Numbered from the stretch's first letter, positions 2,518 through 16,901 are shown. The stretch is 64,000 nt of DNA from an uncultured Bacillota bacterium (GCA_963804645.1 CAWDRG010000015.1:1-64000), one strand, 5' to 3'. Numbers and translations: made by a program. The notes: generated by a model from the sequence alone, not told the origin.

Positions 2518-3456
2518 ATGATTCGCTACATCGCGGGACGGGTGCTCCTGATCCTGCCCGTGCTGTTTGGCGTCAGCATCGTCGTGTTCTTGCTGATCCG
2601 CTTGATCCCGGGCGATCCGGCGACCGCCCTCTTGGGGGAACACGCGACTCCTGAGCTGATCGCGCGTCTGCAGAAACAGCTCGGGCTGAACCTGCCGCTC
2701 TGGCGGCAGTACCTGATTTTCCTTGGAAACGCGTCGCACGGGAATTTCGGCCTGTCGTTCTTCTACGGCGAGAGCGTCTTTACGCTGACCGTAGAGCGCA
2801 TTCCCGTCACGCTGATGCTGATCACGTACGCGGCGCTGATCGGCCTCGTGATTTCGGTCCCGTTTGCGACGATCGCCGCGATTCGCCGTGAGACTCGCGT
2901 CGACCAAGCGATCCGGCTCGTGTTCACCGGCACGATCGGCATCCCCTCGTTCTGGCTCGGCATCGTGCTCGCGCTGCTCCTGAGCGTCAAGGTCCGGTTG
3001 TTCCCGCTCGGCGGCATCGGCACCGGCGGGTTTAACACGTTGTGGTACCTGACGCTGCCCGCGCTGACCATCGGCCTGCACATCTCCTCGACGCTCATGC
3101 GCTCACTGCGCAGCAGCCTGATCGAGGTGTTGAACTCGGACTACGTGACCACCGGGATTGCGATGGGACTGCGCCCGGCCACCCTGCTGGTCAGCTACGT
3201 GCTGCGGAACGGACTGACGCCATTCATCTCGGTGCTGGGCCTGAACATCGGCTGGCTGATCGGGGGTACCATCATCATTGAGCAGGTTTTCGGTGTCCCC
3301 GGGGTGGGGTCGTTGCTGATCACGTCGATCCTGACGCGGGACTACTCGATCGTCCAGTTCGTGACGCTCGTGCTTGCGTTTCTCGTGATCCTCGTGAATC
3401 TGCTGACCGATCTCGCCTACGCCGTCCTCGATCCGCGAGTGTCGTTCCAACGATGA
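2518..3456 (+). CDS. Peptide ABC permease (DppB/OppB-like)
   Basis: IPGDPA, PSFWLG, IIIEQVF, YAVLDPR motifs. Confidence 0.93.
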   Translation: MIRYIAGRVLLILPVLFGVSIVVFLLIRLIPGDPATALLGEHATPELIARLQKQLGLNLPLWRQYLIFLGNASHGNFGLSFFYGESVFTLTVERIPVTLMLITYAALIGLVISVPFATIAAIRRETRVDQAIRLVFTGTIGIPSFWLGIVLALLLSVKVRLFPLGGIGTGGFNTLWYLTLPALTIGLHISSTLMRSLRSSLIEVLNSDYVTTGIAMGLRPATLLVSYVLRNGLTPFISVLGLNIGWLIGGTIIIEQVFGVPGVGSLLITSILTRDYSIVQFVTLVLAFLVILVNLLTDLAYAVLDPRVSFQR

Positions 3457-9651: not shown

Positions 9652-9816
9652 ACCGGAGGATTGCGCCGCAGCGAGCTGGTTGCACTCGACGTCGACGACT
9701 ACTCGCCCACAATGGGCGAACTACGGATCCGACGCGGTAAGGGCGCCAAAGACCGCGTGTGCTATACGACGAACGGTACCATTAATTTAAAAGAAGACCG
9801 GTCGCGTCTATTTTAG
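9652..9816 (+). pseudogene. Tyrosine recombinase/integrase fragment
   Basis: Translates TGGLRRSELVALDVDDYSPTMGELRIRRGKGAKDRVCY (catalytic R and K motifs); no start codon and no HxxR/Y half. Confidence 0.8.
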
Positions 9817-10197
9817 CGACAGGCTGCTTTGTTCGGGTTGACTTACCGATTCCAAGAGGTCGGGCCCGTCGTTGGCCGGATTGTTGACCTTACGGCTGAC
9901 CGGCCACAGGTGGAGGATGCCTCGCGCGGCCGGTCGCATCAACGCCATCGGATCTCGCGTGGTCTCGCCCAGCCACGCCGGCCAGTCGGGTTCCTCGAGA
10001 ATGACCGGCATCCGATGGTGGACCCGTGCCATGTCCTCGTTCGCGGCCGTCGTGACGATCGTGAAAGTTCTGACCGCGCAGGCTGCGACCGGATCGTGCC
10101 ACACCTCCCACAGGCCGGCCAGTGCCATGGGCTGGCCGTCCGTTCGAGCCGCGGCGTACGGCTGCTTCTGCTTTTGTCCGGGGAGCGTTCGCCACTC
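9808..10197 (-). pseudogene. SRAP/YedK family gene, C-terminal part (interrupted)
   Basis: EW...KQPY...MALAGLWE...TFTIVTTAAN...HHRMPVIL...VSRKVNNPANDGPDLLE. Confidence 0.92.
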
Positions 10198-10199
10198 AG

Positions 10200-10211
10200 T
10201 TATATGGACAT
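10200..10211. repeat. Left terminal inverted repeat TTATATGGACAT
   Basis: Exact reverse complement of 15978-15989. Confidence 0.9.
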
Positions 10212-10285
10212 GCCCCGCATTCCGGCGGTCGGTCTCCCAAGCCACCTGCTTCGTGAAGTCCTACCTGGTCTTCGTGGACCGACCG

Positions 10286-10324
10286 GCCGTCGGCAGCGTT
10301 GAAGCAAGTGGGTTTGCCGACGGC
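10286..10324 (-). terminator. Hairpin downstream of the arylsulfatase
   Basis: GCCGTCGGCA / TGCCGACGGC 10-bp stem with a large loop and no clear U-tract. Confidence 0.35.
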
Positions 10325-10362
10325 GCTCGCATCATACGAACAGCGAGCCGAAGCCAACTCGA

Positions 10363-12735
10363 TTAGACGAAAAGCGTTTTCTTCATATGCAATTCTTGGA
10401 GAGCCCTCTGGGCCTCCGCACTGAGGTTGGACTTTCCGACCACGACGGTCACCTTGTGAATCTTGCTGGTGAACTTGTTATCGCCCTGTTTGTAGTCGTC
10501 GCTGACACACGTATAGAGGTTCTCGCCCACGTCCGTCGTTTCCGCGCCAAATGCGAACGGCTGAGTGTGCTCGACCCGCCCTGCGGCGACCTCTTTATCG
10601 TTGACGAAGATCACACCGTTACCGCCTGCGCCCAAACCGCCATCGTAAGCGAACTCGAAGCGAAGTGCCACCCGCCCTACCGGCAGGCGAGCGGGGCCGG
10701 CGATCTTGTAAATCTCGCGACCGAGATAGTTCCAGGCAAACCGGGGTGCGCCGTCCTTGACGTAAAGGGCCCAGCCGCCCATCTCCCCGCCTTGGGCGAT
10801 AACCACCCCTTCTGCACCGGCCTGCGGGACTTCGATATCGGCCTTAACCACGAACGAGCGGTTCTTGATGTTGATGAAGCCATTTTCGGGAATTCCCTTC
10901 ATTCCCTCATAGACCGTGATCTCGCTGCGACCTTCCATCAGATCCGGACGCCCCGCCAGAGCGGTGTTGAAGCGTTCCCAAGCGCGGTCGTCAAGCGGGA
11001 GCACGTGGTACTTGACGGCCTCTTCCAGGAAGACTCCCTTCAGCTTCGCGAGTTTGTCGGGATACTTCGCGGCAAGGTCGTGCGCGCAACTAAAATCTTC
11101 CTCTACATTATAAAGCTCCCACTTGTCGTCTTCAAACGTAGCCCGCGGCTTGGGCTCCCACGGCGGGCGGTGCACCGTGGTGGCGAACCAGCCGTCCTGA
11201 TAGATGCCCCGGTTGCCTGCCATCTCGAAGTATTGCAAGGTGTGGCGCGACTTCGCGTCGGGATTATTCAAGGTGTCTAGCACGCTCACGCCCTCGAGGG
11301 GTTTCTGCTGGACGCCATGCACGACGCCCGGCTCGGGCACGCCAGCCGCCTCCAAGACCGTCGGGGCAATGTCAATCATGTGCATCCACTGCGTACGCAG
11401 GCCGCCCTTCGCCGTGATGCCCTTCGGCCAGTGGACCACCATGGACTGGCAGACGCCGCCGTACGAGGCCACCTGGTGGCCCCAACCAAAGGGCGTGGCG
11501 CCGGCGAAAGCCCAGCCATTGTTGTACAAAATATGCGATTTGGGGCCGCCGATCTCGTCGAAGTTCTTTAGCGGAACGTCCAGAGGCTCCGGCAGCCCGT
11601 TGAACACGGACAGCTCATTGAAGGCGCCGTTGAGGCCGCCTTGGAAAACGGAACCATTGTCGCCGGTGATGTAGAAGATTAACGTGTTGTCCATTTCGCC
11701 GAGGTTCTCGATCTCGTCCAGAAACCGCCCGATTTCGTAGTCGGTCACCTCGGCAAAAGCGGCATAGATCTCCATATACCGCGCAAAGATCTTCTTCTCG
11801 TCGGCCGTCAAGTCGTCCCATTCCTGGATTCCCGGCGGCTTGGGCGCCGCATCGGTGCCCGGAGGCACGACGCCCATCTCGATCTGCCTGGCCAAGGTTT
11901 CCTTACGCACTTGGTCCCAGCCCTGATCGAACTTGCCCTTGTAGCGGTCGCGCCACGTCTCGGGCACGTGGAATGGGCCGTGAGTACCAATTGCCGCGTA
12001 GTAGACGAAAAATGGCTTGTTGGGGGCCAGCGAACGCTGCGAGCGCAGCCAGAGGATGGCCTTGTCGGTGATGTCCGTACTCGCGTAGTAATCGGCATCG
12101 GGATGCATATCCACCCTGGTCATGTTGTCGTAAATGACCGGATGAAAAAGGTCGGCCTCGCCGGACATGAAGCCGTAGAACCTCTCAAACCCGCTATGCA
12201 CCGGCCAGCGGTCGAAGGGTCCCACAGCGCTGCCTTCCCACGGTGCCAGCTCGTGACACTTGCCGAACATGGCAGTGTTATAGCCGTTGAGCCGCAAGAT
12301 CTCGGGCAGATTCGTGACGCTGCTGGGGCGCACCGCAGTGTACCCCGGGAAGCCGGTGGCAATTTCCGAGATCACGCCGAAGTTTGCGCTATGGCTATTG
12401 CGACCGGTAAGCAGCGCTACCCGGGCGGGCGAACACAACGGGGGGACTTTGAGATTGTTGTAGCTCAACCCGGTCTTGGCCAGACGGTCCAGCGTCGGCA
12501 TCTGGATCGGCCCTCCGAAGGTCGATACGTCGCCGAAGCCCATGTTGTCGAGAAGGATGACTACCACGTTGGGCGCACCTTTGGGCGCCTTTACCTCGAA
12601 CCGCGGTGGGGCTGTAGCGTTGTGCGCATCAAGCTCAGTGATTGGCGGATACTGAGGCTCTGGGATGGGCAGCACGGTACGGTCCATGGAGGCGGTCGTT
12701 CCGTCACTCCTTTGGGCCTCTGACTGGTTTGTCAT
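10363..12735 (-). CDS. Arylsulfatase (Cys-type, formylglycine-dependent S1 family)
   Basis: PNVVVILLDNMG, CSPARVALLTGR, GYNTAMFGKCH, GDNG, WELYN motifs; no obvious signal peptide. Confidence 0.93.
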   Translation of the reverse strand: MTNQSEAQRSDGTTASMDRTVLPIPEPQYPPITELDAHNATAPPRFEVKAPKGAPNVVVILLDNMGFGDVSTFGGPIQMPTLDRLAKTGLSYNNLKVPPLCSPARVALLTGRNSHSANFGVISEIATGFPGYTAVRPSSVTNLPEILRLNGYNTAMFGKCHELAPWEGSAVGPFDRWPVHSGFERFYGFMSGEADLFHPVIYDNMTRVDMHPDADYYASTDITDKAILWLRSQRSLAPNKPFFVYYAAIGTHGPFHVPETWRDRYKGKFDQGWDQVRKETLARQIEMGVVPPGTDAAPKPPGIQEWDDLTADEKKIFARYMEIYAAFAEVTDYEIGRFLDEIENLGEMDNTLIFYITGDNGSVFQGGLNGAFNELSVFNGLPEPLDVPLKNFDEIGGPKSHILYNNGWAFAGATPFGWGHQVASYGGVCQSMVVHWPKGITAKGGLRTQWMHMIDIAPTVLEAAGVPEPGVVHGVQQKPLEGVSVLDTLNNPDAKSRHTLQYFEMAGNRGIYQDGWFATTVHRPPWEPKPRATFEDDKWELYNVEEDFSCAHDLAAKYPDKLAKLKGVFLEEAVKYHVLPLDDRAWERFNTALAGRPDLMEGRSEITVYEGMKGIPENGFINIKNRSFVVKADIEVPQAGAEGVVIAQGGEMGGWALYVKDGAPRFAWNYLGREIYKIAGPARLPVGRVALRFEFAYDGGLGAGGNGVIFVNDKEVAAGRVEHTQPFAFGAETTDVGENLYTCVSDDYKQGDNKFTSKIHKVTVVVGKSNLSAEAQRALQELHMKKTLFV

Positions 12736-12834
12736 GATCTAGTCCCCTTTCGATGGCTCCGACCGAGATGACTTGTGCGTAACGCAGTTGTTCTCAACTT
12801 AAGTTTATTGGCTGATACCCACTGCGCCTTGATC

Positions 12835-14862
12835 CTATCTCGTGTGGCCTTCGTCGGACGGATACGACTCACCTACAGGCTCCCCCAAATCGGTCAGCAG
12901 ATGTTCGATCCGTCTCACGATGCAAGCGTGTCGTTCGACCTCGCGCGCCCAGCCTTGCGCGCGTGCCTCCTTCACCAAGCCCAGCTCTCGCAACCGCCGC
13001 GCCCGCAGCCGTGGTGCATACTCCGGAGTGGTGACGAACTTGGCGCAGGTCAGATACAGGTCACACTCACACGGTCCTTCCTGCGGCAGCCGCAAGCAAT
13101 GCCCCAGTTCCAGCTCGGTGCGGAAGAAATTTGCCTTGAGCCAGTCGATCGACTCTCGCGGCATTGCACCAACTCGTAGAGTTGCGGCAAGCGGTCCCGC
13201 GAGTTGTGCGCCGGGACCGAGGACCTTTAGGTAATCCTCGCGAATCGTCGCATCCGTCAGGTGGGCGTAGATCAGGGTCATGCCGGTGCTGGTATGTCCC
13301 AGCATCTTCATAATCGTGTGCAGACGTGCGCCACCCTCAGCGAGCTCAGTCCCGACCGTATGTCGGAAGCGATGCGCGGTGATGCGCGGCCGGCCATTGG
13401 GATCCAGCAATCCGGCCTCGGCACAGACGATGGCGAGGGGCGCCTCGAACAGGTAGCCCGACGTCATCTTCTGGCCGCGCCGGACGAACAGACGCGGCGT
13501 CTCCTGCTCGCCCCAATCCCCCCGGAAGCCCCGGGCCCCCGTGTCGAGCGCCTGCAACCCGCGGATCGCGATCGCCGCTTCTTCGTGCAACGGGATCAGC
13601 CGCTCGGTGCCGGTCTTGCCGGCCGGAATGCGCAGCCTTGGTGTGCCATCGGCATAGGCATCAAGACAGTGCAGGTCGAGATTGCAGATCTCGCTCCGGC
13701 GCGCCCCGCTCCAACGGGCAACCAGCAAGGCCGTGCGCTGGTAGGGGCAGGCCAAATCGCGGATTGCTAGCATGAGTCTCTCCAACTCATCAGCCGGGAT
13801 ATAGCGTGGCAAACGCGCGACCCGCTTCGGCAGGTCGCGCGCACCAATCAGAGTGTAAGTCGGCGCATCGTCCCAGCCCCAGGCAGCTGTGTCCTGGAAG
13901 AACACCGACAGCGTCGACAGGCGCGAGATCTTGGTCTCGATCGATACCACTGCGTTGTCCGCATGCGGAGTGGTCCTCAACGTCGCCGCATAAGCCAGTA
14001 CATGGTCGCGCGTGACGTCGCCGAATGTCTCGACTGTCGGGTGAGCCGCGACGACCCAGCTTGCAAAGTGCCGCACGTAGGCATCAAATTTCTGGATGGT
14101 CTTCGGACGGGACTGCTGTGCACGACGCACCACGAGATAGCGCTCCAGCAGCGCAGCCATCCGAGGTGGCGCATGTAACTTCCGCCGCGGGCAGGTTACT
14201 GTCCGCCGCGGGAACGAGACAATGGCATGTCGATGATAAAGTAGGGTCCGCAGCGTAAAGAGCGCCTGCCGATGTTCCGCGAACGCGCGCTGCCAAGCTG
14301 TCTGAGACGCGAAGAACATGAGGCGGTCAGCGTGGTCACCGAATGTGGTCAATGCCTGCTCGAAGTTGGCAAGGGCGGCCTCGCTCGGTAGATGCGCGCG
14401 ACCAGGCTCATTGAGGTGGAGATATTTGACGAGGCGGCGCACGCGCTCTCTGCTAGCGATGGTGCCATAACCGAGTTGTACGGCCTGGGCGGACAGGCTG
14501 TCCACATACGCGTTGACCGGCTCCGGCAGCAACTTTGGCGGCAGCTTGTGAAAATTGATCGCCAGGATCCACGGCCAGTCGAGCCGAAGCCGCTGCTCAA
14601 AAGCCAGGAAGTAGAGGTAGGCGCGACTATGAGCGCAGATATAGGCTCGGCCCGCTCTCGGCGACACTGAACCGACCCGCTCGACGAGCGGGGCCGAGAA
14701 CCAGGTGGAAAGGTTCGGATAGGCGCGGACGAATCTCCGGCGCGCTTTCAGCGCTTGGTCGCCCAGGATGGACGGGCTGACGGAGAGGAACGCCGCATAG
14801 TCGGCTTCCGATGCGTGCTGTAACCGCACTGAGGCGGAAGGCACAGCGAGGTTGGCGCTCAT
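12835..14862 (-). CDS. Large tyrosine recombinase (about 675 aa, TnpB-like)
   Basis: GARRSE, AGKT, TAHRFRHT, LGH, TLIYA; C-terminal Cys cluster; ATGA overlap with the upstream YR. Confidence 0.9.
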   Translation of the reverse strand: MSANLAVPSASVRLQHASEADYAAFLSVSPSILGDQALKARRRFVRAYPNLSTWFSAPLVERVGSVSPRAGRAYICAHSRAYLYFLAFEQRLRLDWPWILAINFHKLPPKLLPEPVNAYVDSLSAQAVQLGYGTIASRERVRRLVKYLHLNEPGRAHLPSEAALANFEQALTTFGDHADRLMFFASQTAWQRAFAEHRQALFTLRTLLYHRHAIVSFPRRTVTCPRRKLHAPPRMAALLERYLVVRRAQQSRPKTIQKFDAYVRHFASWVVAAHPTVETFGDVTRDHVLAYAATLRTTPHADNAVVSIETKISRLSTLSVFFQDTAAWGWDDAPTYTLIGARDLPKRVARLPRYIPADELERLMLAIRDLACPYQRTALLVARWSGARRSEICNLDLHCLDAYADGTPRLRIPAGKTGTERLIPLHEEAAIAIRGLQALDTGARGFRGDWGEQETPRLFVRRGQKMTSGYLFEAPLAIVCAEAGLLDPNGRPRITAHRFRHTVGTELAEGGARLHTIMKMLGHTSTGMTLIYAHLTDATIREDYLKVLGPGAQLAGPLAATLRVGAMPRESIDWLKANFFRTELELGHCLRLPQEGPCECDLYLTCAKFVTTPEYAPRLRARRLRELGLVKEARAQGWAREVERHACIVRRIEHLLTDLGEPVGESYPSDEGHTR

Positions 14863-15932
14863 GATCTCAGGGCACTGAGAGCACGACGGTAGTCCGCCAG
14901 CATCCCAGCATCGGACACCCGGGTGTAGACGCGCGTCGCCTCCAAAGAAGCGTGGCCGAGGCGCTTCTGCAGCGCGAGCTCGCGCATCCCACCCTCCCAT
15001 AGCCGGGTCGCATGTGTGTGGCGTAGCGCGTGCGGCGTGATCCAGCTGAGATCCAGGCCGGCCGTGCGGCGCAGACGGCGAAATAGCTTGACGAATGCGT
15101 CGTATCCGAGCGGCTCACAGCGACGACGACCGTGCCCGCCGACCAGGAACACGTGCTGCGACGGGGCATCTCGTGGACGTTCCGCCGCAACGTAATCGCT
15201 GAGCGCAGCCAGCGCCTCGGGCTCGAGGAGATCAACCATGCGCTCGCTGCGAGACTTGGTCCGGACGCCTCGTGGATGGTCGATTCGGTAGCGGATCACG
15301 ATCCGCCGTCGACCATACTGAATGTCCTCCAAATGCAGGTTCAGGAGCTCGCCCACGCGCAGGCCACCCTGCAGTAGGAACAGCAGCATGGCCCGATCGC
15401 GCAGCCGCTTCGGCGCCATGAGAAGCCGCGCGACCTGCTCTTCGGACAGCGGCCGGGGGATGCGCTGAATACGGCGCAGGCGCATCGACCGTCGGCCAGT
15501 CCGGCGCGTCGCCTGCTGCTGAGGGTAACCCGCGTTCAGCGGATTGCGGACGGCCCCGAGGGCGTGCGTCAGCAGCAAGTGCTCGTAGAAGGTCGACACC
15601 GCAGCCAGCACACGGTTGACAGTTGCCGGCGCGAGGCGCACGGAGACGACGGCCGGGGTCGAGGTACGCCTCCCGCCGGTGACACGTCGCCTGTCCGCGA
15701 GATGGGCGATGAAATCGATCGAATGTGCTATGTTGAATTGTTCGACAGTCAGTCCAGACGCGGAGAGGTATCCAAACAGGAACTTCAGATCATGCAGATA
15801 AGCCTTGACAGTGTGTGGCGAGCAGCCGCGTGCGCAAAGGAACCGAACAAAGCTTGCGATGGCAGGGATTTGCTTCCCCCGCTGATCGACCAGCGCTATC
15901 TCGGTACCGTCTGTCCCTCCAGCCCTGGTCAT
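14859..15932 (-). CDS. Tyrosine recombinase (357 aa, TnpA-like)
   Basis: SPHTVKAY N-domain; GLRVGE, TKS, TPHALRHT, LGH, TRVYT. Confidence 0.93.
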   Translation of the reverse strand: MTRAGGTDGTEIALVDQRGKQIPAIASFVRFLCARGCSPHTVKAYLHDLKFLFGYLSASGLTVEQFNIAHSIDFIAHLADRRRVTGGRRTSTPAVVSVRLAPATVNRVLAAVSTFYEHLLLTHALGAVRNPLNAGYPQQQATRRTGRRSMRLRRIQRIPRPLSEEQVARLLMAPKRLRDRAMLLFLLQGGLRVGELLNLHLEDIQYGRRRIVIRYRIDHPRGVRTKSRSERMVDLLEPEALAALSDYVAAERPRDAPSQHVFLVGGHGRRRCEPLGYDAFVKLFRRLRRTAGLDLSWITPHALRHTHATRLWEGGMRELALQKRLGHASLEATRVYTRVSDAGMLADYRRALSALRS

Positions 15933-15977
15933 TCACATCCCCCCAGCCCCGACAAACGTCAGTCCAAGCCATGGTGG

Positions 15978-15989
15978 ATGTCCATATAA
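15978..15989. repeat. Right terminal inverted repeat ATGTCCATATAA
   Basis: Exact reverse complement of 10200-10211. Confidence 0.9.
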
Positions 15990-15990
15990 A

Positions 15991-16311
15991 CTCGTAAAAG
16001 TTGGACGCCGGGATCAGGCACCGCCGCCTGGCGAATGCATCACGGAAGAGCGACGACGTGATCACGGTCTCGCCCCGAGCATTGATCGGCCGGCGCGTGT
16101 GCACGGGATCCTTGGCCCACCGGGGGAGTAAGCCCCACTGCAGCCGCTCCAGCCGGCGCACTCCGGTCTCCTCGTCGCGCAGGACGACCATTGTATCCTG
16201 GCTGGGGGCGAGGTTCCAGGTGGGCTCGATTCGAGGGTCCGGCTCGTATCCGGCGCGGAACAACTGCGCGACAAGCCCGGGGATGAGGTAGATGCCAAGA
16301 CGCCCGTACAC
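15991..16311 (-). pseudogene. SRAP/YedK family gene, N-terminal part (interrupted; Cys2 reads Tyr)
   Basis: MYGR...WNLAPSQ...WGLLPRW...INARGET...FRDAFARRRCLIPASNFYE. Confidence 0.92.
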
Positions 16312-16364
16312 GATGCGCTACGCTCCGTTCACCGTGCGTGCCGGCCTGCGGGCGCGCGGACCCG

Positions 16365-16901
16365 TCACGAAATCCGCGCGCGCGTCCGGTCCGGAAACCG
16401 AATGGACGGGTGCACCACGTCTTCGTCCGCAAACGGACGGAACCACTGGTGAAACTCGAGCCGCGGGTCGACGGGGTGGGACAGCTCGAACAGCGTCCGG
16501 ATGCCGTGGTCGTCGTACGCAACATCCCACAGCGGCCCGAAGTCGGCCTCGACCCCGCGGTCCTCGAGCGTGGCCTGGGCGAAATCCAGCAGCGCATGGA
16601 AGGCGAGGTGTTCCCCCACGCACGCGGGCCGGCACGCCGGGCGGTCCCACAAGTTCGCGCTGACGGACAGGAGACACGTGAGGAAGTTCCGCCCGAACGT
16701 CTCGTCGTACAAGGGACGATAGCGCGCCGGGAGATACTCCGCCATCCAGGTGTCCTCGATCGGGGTGCCACGGCTCAGGTCGTTGACCGCGTCGAAAAAG
16801 TACTGCGTGAGCAGCACGGTCGCGTCACGCAGCGCGGTTACATTGTCTTCGGTCAGCGCGCATTGACTCCAGCATCTTCGGTGCGATCGCCACGGCATCA
16901 C
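16365..16901 (-). CDS. Hypothetical acidic protein upstream of SRAP (start uncertain)
   Basis: Host-like codon usage; YLPARYRPLYD, PACVGEHLA, WFRPF; same strand as SRAP. Confidence 0.7.
   Translation of the reverse strand: MMPWRSHRRCWSQCALTEDNVTALRDATVLLTQYFFDAVNDLSRGTPIEDTWMAEYLPARYRPLYDETFGRNFLTCLLSVSANLWDRPACRPACVGEHLAFHALLDFAQATLEDRGVEADFGPLWDVAYDDHGIRTLFELSHPVDPRLEFHQWFRPFADEDVVHPSIRFPDRTRARIS

Follow-up and report, generated by a model that had tools for sequence, protein, structure and literature searches.

A putative Tn554-related transposon with dif-like ends and a fixed six-base spacer in the split SRAP gene of an uncultured Bacillota bacterium

We analyzed a stretch of 64,000 nucleotides, referred to here as the window, from the genome of an uncultured Bacillota bacterium. 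A perfect 12-bp inverted repeat at 10200 to 10211 and 15978 to 15989 delimits an element of 5,790 bp (10200 to 15989), and similarity between the two ends extends over 17 nt (88%). In the whole 64-kb window, the 12-mer has just two occurrences, one per strand and each at a junction (0.01 expected), and none of 100 shuffles contained two or more copies. The left junction reads CGCC ACTCAG followed by the repeat TTATATGGACAT on the plus strand (10190 to 10211). The right junction reads ATGTCCATATAA followed by ACTCGT AAAAG (15978 to 16000); the repeat at this end lies on the minus strand, 45 bp upstream of the start codon of the nearest gene. All genes between the repeats are on the minus strand. 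From right to left, these are a short, TnpA-like tyrosine recombinase, YR-A (357 amino acids [aa], 14859 to 15932; PF00589, E value of 2.8e-31), a long, TnpB-like tyrosine recombinase, YR-B (675 aa, 12835 to 14862; PF00589, E value of 1.8e-23), and a 790-aa Cys-type sulfatase (10363 to 12735; PF00884, E value of 5.1e-52). An earlier note on this DNA had read the same junctions and 12-bp ends, had assigned the ends to a tyrosine recombinase element, and had counted two differences between the flanking 6-mers. All three readings hold, with two recombinase genes between the repeats and with ACTCAG and ACTCGT differing at two of six positions.

The TGA stop of YR-A and the ATG of YR-B overlap as ATGA, and the two recombinases are predicted to be translationally coupled and to form the mobility module, with the sulfatase as a putative passenger in the window copy. 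The gap between YR-B and the sulfatase is 99 bp. The G+C content of the element is 61.8%, compared to 67.8% for the window. The same genome contains neither a second copy of the element nor a second long recombinase. Two or three sulfatase paralogues with 63 to 69% DNA identity to the passenger gene are found elsewhere in the genome (contig C9, 179897 to 185183). A sigma-70 promoter scan of 9700 to 16500 gave one site, located within the sulfatase, compared to 1.2 expected.

The element lies in a gene for an SRAP protein, a DNA repair protein that protects abasic sites. The N-terminal part of the split gene (minus strand, 15990 to 16311, with a GTG start at 16311) ends with ...ASNFYE, and the C-terminal part (minus strand, 9808 to 10199, with its stop codon at 9808 to 9810) begins with (E)WRTLPGQKQ..., as identified by Pfam PF02586 and translation. 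Profile positions 3 to 109 of PF02586 map to 15988 to 16305 and positions 108 to 214 map to 9877 to 10197, and the inverted repeats stand exactly where the SRAP homology breaks off. At the DNA level, homology to same-genus SRAP genes likewise stops at 10197. The C-terminal part is 64 to 70% identical to same-genus SRAP genes, and the N-terminal part is 82 to 87% identical to three SRAP genes in one same-genus genome. No PF02586 match other than these two halves was found in the genome, which is 96.8% complete, and the insertion has therefore split the only detectable SRAP gene of this genome. Three of the four uninterrupted same-genus SRAP genes read TTC TAC GAG TGG, and the fourth reads TTC TAC GAA TGG. 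Because the uninterrupted genes read TAC GAG/GAA TGG, the 6-mer ACTCGT at 15990 to 15995 (ACGAGT in gene orientation) is the host's own AC-GAG-T within TAC-GAG-TGG (Y-E-W). None of the four genes has CTGAGT, the gene-orientation form of ACTCAG (10194 to 10199), at the insertion point. When the element and one 6-mer (5,796 nt) were removed, the gene read F-Y-E-W if ACTCGT was kept and F-S-E-W if ACTCAG was kept, both in frame, as had been proposed for an excision product.

The start of the split SRAP gene reads V-Y-G-R (GTG TAC GGG; codon 2 at 16306 to 16308, minus strand), in contrast to V-C-G-R or M-C-G-R in same-genus genomes. A single G-to-A change has thus replaced Cys2, which we take to be the catalytic residue of SRAP proteins, with Tyr. 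This change would fit decay after the insertion or a copy that was already dead. One of three SRAP paralogues in another same-genus genome (locus L008 in G002) is interrupted close to its start by an in-frame stop (GRPGI, stop, LIPG).

YR-A has SAM-like domains in its N-terminal part besides PF00589, and its candidate catalytic positions (R, H-x-x-R, H, Y) are R192, H301, R304, H327, and Y336. Those of YR-B (R, K, H-x-x-R, H, Y) are R388/R389, K416, H497, R500, H523, and Y532, and they are invariant across a 28-sequence family alignment. YR-B also has a C-terminal Cys motif starting from residue 587. The open reading frame of YR-B has 721 codons, and the ATG at 14862 was taken as the start of the 675-aa protein on the basis of the family and an identical database protein. 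The predicted structure of YR-B (pLDDT of 82.4) has an Xer/IntI/Cre-type fold, and its PDB matches were XerA, IntI, XerH, Tn1549 Int, lambda Int, and Cre (chains of 266 to 356 residues, approximately 290 to 350 aligned columns). A helical N-terminal region of approximately 230 aa and the Cys-rich tail extend beyond all of these matches, and no matched chain is long enough to cover both.

The closest named relatives that we compared are those of the Tn554 family, represented by a Tn554-type module on an Enterococcus hirae plasmid (L097), which is located next to fexA and carries a DUF6262 (TnpC) gene. YR-A is 29% identical to TnpA of this module (361 aa) over the full length (354 aligned positions; E value of 2e-46). 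YR-B is 30% identical to TnpB (637 aa) over the C-terminal 356 aa (E value of 2e-40), and the alignment extends through the G-x-C...P-C...C-x-x-F Cys-rich tail. The window element resembles the Tn554 family (Tn554 and Tn558 of staphylococci and enterococci) in having a short and then a long tyrosine recombinase and in its site-specific insertion within a gene, with no true duplication and with a 6-bp heterogeneity at the junctions. However, TnpC/DUF6262 is absent from the window element: the 99 bp downstream of YR-B leave no room for it, nor is there space in minimal family members of 3.27 to 3.45 kb, which consist of the two recombinase genes and nothing else. The repeats of the window family also differ in being perfect over 11 to 12 bp, with the terminal motif TTATNTGGACA, which is absent from the Enterococcus module. 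Tn554-related short and long pairs, some lacking TnpC, are described from Actinobacteria in the part of Van Houdt et al. 2012 (PMC3414803) that covers them. BIM elements, as presented there, combine one recombinase with an unrelated protein and were rejected as the window family.

Relatives of the element are numerous. Among 8,000 database candidates scored against YR-B, 507 had E values of 1e-10 or lower. A search of one-genome-per-species contigs with the YR-B alignment matched 359 stretches, 342 of which encode a relative, and a metagenome search matched 597 stretches, 506 of which encode one (out of an estimated 1,300 or so in the whole collection). The hosts include Proteobacteria, Actinomycetota, Chloroflexota, Acidobacteriota, Leptospira, Brevibacillus, and others, and the family thus ranges over many phyla and, in contrast to the Tn554 family, beyond Firmicutes. 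We inspected in detail the best 80 loci of the genome search and the best 80 loci of the metagenome search. Family members share the ends TTATNTGGACA...TGTCCNNATAA. With at most one mismatch allowed, the end consensus TTATGTGGACA...TGTCCACATAA, which the recombinase-distal repeat of the window copy (10200 to 10211) fits, was found at 95 distinct left ends and 109 distinct right ends, and almost nothing is conserved beyond it. In the lineage that targets SRAP genes in the same way as the window copy (eight right ends), alignment is limited to the repeat, the 6-mer, and the host GG. Insertions hit the same SRAP Y-E-W codons in hosts of several phyla, and the target arms have no similarity to the terminal repeats. 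In genomes with several copies, the repeated units are 3.3 to 3.4 kb long and hold just the two recombinase genes. The window element is a member of this large family, and as a Tn554-related transposon it combines dif-like ends and a fixed spacer with the absence of TnpC. We found no description of the family by its ends in the literature; the motif matches that were inspected were unrelated and mostly primers.

Seven of the inspected loci (L060, L064, L075, L080, L081, L084, and L093) are whole contigs of 3.40 to 4.05 kb whose ends coincide to a few bases with the terminal repeats, a pattern typical of multicopy elements that break assemblies. Each retains a few bases of the conserved target at both ends. 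A TTGAC[AT] motif is found directly inside the right repeat at 22 of the 109 distinct right ends and at 5 of the 8 SRAP-lineage ends (for example, L100 at 3340 to 3357 and L104 at 11108 to 11125). Joined ends would place this motif 17 to 18 nt upstream of TTATGT/TATGTG in the left end. A junction promoter in some family members is possible, but the case is weak. The window copy lacks the motif, no good -10 sequence follows, and a junction promoter built on TTGA[CT] was therefore dropped.

The 6-mers adjoining the repeats were compared across relatives with YR-A placed first, so that proximal and distal are relative to the recombinase genes. The window 6-mers, CTGAGT (distal) and ACGAGT (proximal), share GAGT. 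The distal 6-mer was CTGAGT in all nine loci with an SRAP flank detected by tblastn (the window, L100, L103, L105, L018, L104, L111, L017, and L107), and YR-B of these relatives is just 51 to 66% identical to that of the window. The proximal 6-mers of this lineage, read at 13 loci (9 with the SRAP N-terminal part by tblastn), vary with host codon usage: ACGAGT was found six times, TCGAAT three times, ATGAGT twice, and TCGAGT and ACGAAT once each. The polarity is strict, as none of the 13 proximal 6-mers is CTGAGT and none of the 12 distal 6-mers, of which 9 adjoin a proven SRAP flank, is of the host type. Three loci were assigned by their 6-mer, with no SRAP flank detected with the query used: L098 and L054 (CAGAGT) and L122 (CTGAGT). 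Flanks are near identical in L018 and L104, in L105 and L107, and in L102 and L109; the SRAP lineage therefore comprises approximately seven independent right junctions.

CTGAGT in an SRAP gene would place Ser, Pro, Thr, or Ala at the position of the Tyr of the four intact genes, and in this respect it is unlike SRAP targets. A 6-mer derived from the target would resemble them, and CTGAGT is therefore a fixed part of the element. Furthermore, the 6-mer is as conserved as the terminal repeat, while neighboring DNA cannot be aligned, indicating that it belongs to the element. Joining of the ends would create a site with CTGAGT as its spacer. The 6-mer at 10194 to 10199 is thus element borne and adjoins the recombinase-distal end.

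Other lineages have fixed 6-mers as well. In a Rhodobacteraceae lineage with 3,411-bp elements, CATCTA is distal in 10 of 10 cases and proximal in 0 of 6. In a second Rhodobacteraceae lineage, with 3,389-bp elements, CATCGA is distal in all 12 rows (two pairs are duplicates). The proximal 6-mer is complete in 10 rows, which represent nine distinct insertions, since L086 and L090 cover a single region, and in 4 of these rows it is CATCGA as well. In three lineages, the two flanking 6-mers are identical (ACTCGG, CAGCAT, or GCTTCG) and are edged exactly by the repeats, which sets the spacer length at six. A second SRAP lineage (L021, L102, L108, L109, L110, and L113) is inserted in the opposite orientation. 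Its fixed 6-mer, ACAGGG, is proximal in six of six cases, and its distal 6-mers, ACTCAT, ATTCAA, or ATTCGT, are host derived. L106 has the end type of this second lineage in the forward orientation, with ACAAAG proximal and the host ACGAGT distal. The bases common to spacer and target are GAGT at the 3' edge where the spacer is distal and AC at the 5' edge where the spacer is proximal, and they adjoin the implied crossover in both SRAP lineages. The relatives keep the same boundaries as the window copy, and with a constant distal CTGAGT and a proximal 6-mer that follows host codons, the two 6-mers are not a target duplication; on both points, the comparison agrees with the earlier note. The dif-type 12-6-12 geometry that it gave for a circle junction also holds for the ends that a joined form would bring together, with 11-6-11 at the family level.

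We also examined Logan contigs of peat runs X1, X2, X3, and X5 that aligned to the window at 90% or more. One X1 contig with a depth of 2 joins 10198 to 15995 and skips 5,796 nt, that is, the 5,790-bp element and 6 nt. The community that contains the window stretch thus also includes an uninterrupted allele, and the contig confirms the element boundaries. It reads ACTCA+T, which is neither of the window 6-mers, and probably carries nearby indels. Since its sequence differs from the window, it derives from a different strain or allele and gives no evidence for excision. No contig joining the element ends back to back was found among the assembled contigs of the four runs, nor did a regular expression search find an end-6-end arrangement in any fetched locus. 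A junction search of the kind that had been proposed, run on these contigs and loci, recovered an uninterrupted site and no circle junction. An X3 contig (depth of 8.9) joins 12511 to 15059 with one extra letter and skips most of YR-B; its shorter side covers only 21 letters, and a repeat or a different organism may be its source. With open recombinase frames and perfect repeats, the window copy is putatively mobile in this genome.

We propose that 10194 to 10211 is the recombinase-distal junction of a site-specific Tn554-related transposon that lacks TnpC, carries a fixed spacer, and moves by one-strand exchange and replication. We place the probability of this reading at roughly 0.7. The fixed, one-sided 6-mer and the target homology beside the crossover suggest a single homology-gated exchange that is finished by replication; from the same patterns, we infer the circular form of the element, the exchange of a single strand pair, and the replication step. 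In the circle, the 12-bp inverted repeats would flank ACTCAG and form a palindromic, dif-like 12-6-12 core site. This circle would integrate into the T-AC-GAG-T-GG (Y-E-W) codons of the only SRAP gene of the host, so that the host ACGAGT would remain at the proximal junction and the CTGAGT of the element would be placed at the distal junction. A match between target and spacer would be needed only beside one cleavage point, here GAGT, and the exchange would be limited to the strand pair cut at the matching edge. Tyrosine recombinases test homology during strand exchange, and this test predicts the observed edge matching if just one strand pair can be exchanged. The Holliday junction would then be resolved by replication without a second exchange, with one fixed polarity and no heteroduplex segregants as the outcome. 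Reversal on the same strand would yield a circle carrying CTGAGT and would restore F-Y-E-W.

The foreign 6-mer could instead be a coupling sequence or footprint from a previous insertion site, as in SEs, Tn554-related elements, or Tn916, which was the origin that the earlier note had assigned to ACTCAG. The recombinases are indeed Tn554 related, the foreign 6-mer is at the recombinase-distal junction, as in SE integration, and exactly this route is described for SEs, and as observed for Tn554-related elements as well, in the relevant sections of PMC10214605. However, CTGAGT is distal in 9 of 9 SRAP-flanked relatives despite YR-B identities of just 51 to 66%, it is found in none of the 13 proximal 6-mers and none of the four intact SRAP genes, where it would replace Tyr, and the CATCTA lineage behaves alike (10 of 10 distal and 0 of 6 proximal). 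A previous target is thus an unlikely source of ACTCAG, although the CATCGA lineage, taken alone, could fit such an origin as well. It also seems improbable that both strand pairs are exchanged over a 6-bp overlap, as in Tn916 and CTnDOT, with uniformity then imposed on the heteroduplexes by biased mismatch repair or selection. Exchange of both strand pairs is ordinary tyrosine recombinase chemistry, and the Tn916 and CTnDOT integrases tolerate heterology. However, without a bias, replication of the heteroduplex would yield both polarities equally, as segregation of Tn916 coupling sequences would be expected to do, whereas each lineage here has one (in the SRAP lineage, 0 of 13 proximal CTGAGT and 0 of 12 distal host-type 6-mers). 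Moreover, the polarity flips in the ACAGGG lineage along with the side of homology, which a fixed repair bias would not do.

A 6-bp target site duplication produced by staggered cutting and subsequently obscured by two point mutations would account for the agreement of four of six positions in the window and for the three lineages with identical 6-mers on both sides. However, the element has two tyrosine recombinases and no DDE-type transposase, and the supposedly mutated copy is always CTGAGT (9 of 9 SRAP-flanked loci), while the other copy tracks host codon usage; exact restoration of the gene by removing the element and one 6-mer fits conservative recombination equally well. We consider such a duplication extremely unlikely. 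The element might also be an immobile relic, with its repeats and 6-mers as fossils of one old insertion. It is single copy in the genome, no circle junction was found in the contigs or fetched loci, and Tyr at the Cys2 position of SRAP would fit some time as a pseudogene. In contrast, both recombinase frames are open with their candidate catalytic residues present, the ATGA coupling and both perfect 12-bp repeats are preserved, and the community that holds the stretch also has an uninterrupted allele, which makes a relic quite improbable.

Tyrosine recombinase transposons are grouped into ICE/IMEs, SEs, GInts, RITs, and Tn554 in the classification section of Idola et al. 2023 (PMC10214605). 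According to the mechanistic sections of the same paper, the six bases of the proximal flank of an SE enter the circle and then the new distal junction, and for Tn554-related elements as well, 6 bp of the donor left flank passes to the new right junction; the strand exchange route of Tn554 is given there as unresolved. As in SEs, integration of the window element leaves the spacer at the recombinase-distal junction and the target 6-mer at the proximal one; for SEs, a one-strand, replication-dependent route has been proposed. In contrast to SEs, in which proximal-flank bases enter the circle and the footprints vary, the spacer of the window family is fixed, and one of its lineages has reversed polarity. 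Comparison among relatives likewise sets the family apart from Tn554, with a 6-mer that is constant per lineage and is not a copy of the donor flank. The SE and GInt modules have four core genes (intA, tfp, intB, and srap, with tfp/ginC and srap/ginD), compared to two in the window module, which has no equivalent of tfp or srap, and SE core-gene blocks (tfp and srap) have been detected in Gammaproteobacteria only. RIT elements have three adjacent tyrosine recombinase genes, compared to two here. On the wider, more tentative reading given below, the fixed spacer would also be a mechanistic difference from SEs and Tn554, in that the same strand would serve for leaving and entering, in contrast to the reported donor-flank footprint.

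The ends also invite comparison with XerC/XerD-dif. The dif site consists of two 11-bp half-sites and a 6-bp central region in the description given in PMC5357621, and the inner arms of Escherichia coli dif read ...CATAA, six bases, and TTATGT..., with the inner positions as the best-conserved part, in the site comparison of PMC2731167. The joined family ends, in their inferred form, would have the same 11-6-11 arrangement, and the family consensus, ...CACATAA / TTATGTGG..., agrees with E. coli dif in the innermost bases of the arms. In NCBIfam, YR-A and YR-B both match Xer models best, and XerA, IntI, and XerH head the structural matches. However, the scores (116 to 134 bits for YR-A and 79 to 80 bits for YR-B) are far below the Xer cutoffs of 220 to 335 bits. 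The window family differs further from XerC/XerD-dif in its identical arms, compared to distinct XerC and XerD arms, in a site that is split over the transposon ends, in a target that is a coding motif rather than dif, and in the extra helical N-terminal region and Cys-rich tail of YR-B. Single-strand exchange resolved by replication is the route of integron attC x attI recombination and of CTX phage integration at dif. As proposed here, one productive exchange in those systems gives a fixed polarity and no heteroduplex segregants. In contrast to the window element, which gives no sign of a single-stranded intermediate, they use folded single-stranded substrates.

Few transposons (Tn554, SEs, GInts, and RITs) are known to be mobilized solely by tyrosine recombinases. 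The family described here is a minimal, two-gene version with many natural insertions, whose junctions can be read like an experiment: the spacer is fixed, the polarity is strict, and the polarity flips with the side of homology. If the model is true, one-strand exchange plus replication becomes directly testable, and hits on single codons of conserved genes across phyla are explained. For the host genome, the consequence was the splitting of its only detectable SRAP gene and the import of a sulfatase. More tentatively, a wider reading is possible, in which an unnamed, widespread two-recombinase family would carry a split dif-like 11-6-11 site with a spacer fixed per lineage. Edge homology would pick the strand pair and the side of the spacer, and replication would finish the reaction. 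Spacers and recombinases would be tuned to conserved codon motifs of widespread genes, such as SRAP F-Y-E-W and motifs like those of a Tn3-type transposase, a group II intron reverse transcriptase, and a DNA methyltransferase, and the elements would therefore find a target in almost any new host.

Members of other family lineages (L031, L038, L030, L150, L121, L072/L091, and L040) are also inserted within conserved coding motifs. By motif reading, a Tn3-type transposase is suggested by ...TDT-x-x-Y-T/S followed by ...FG...LLG..F.PR, a group II intron reverse transcriptase by IPKPGK..RPLGIP, and a DNA methyltransferase by ...PPYYNNVPYA followed by ADLSDFFYVWL. Further targets are a small protein with ...HSWFD followed by QSKEITADFRH and another protein with an HEAGH motif.
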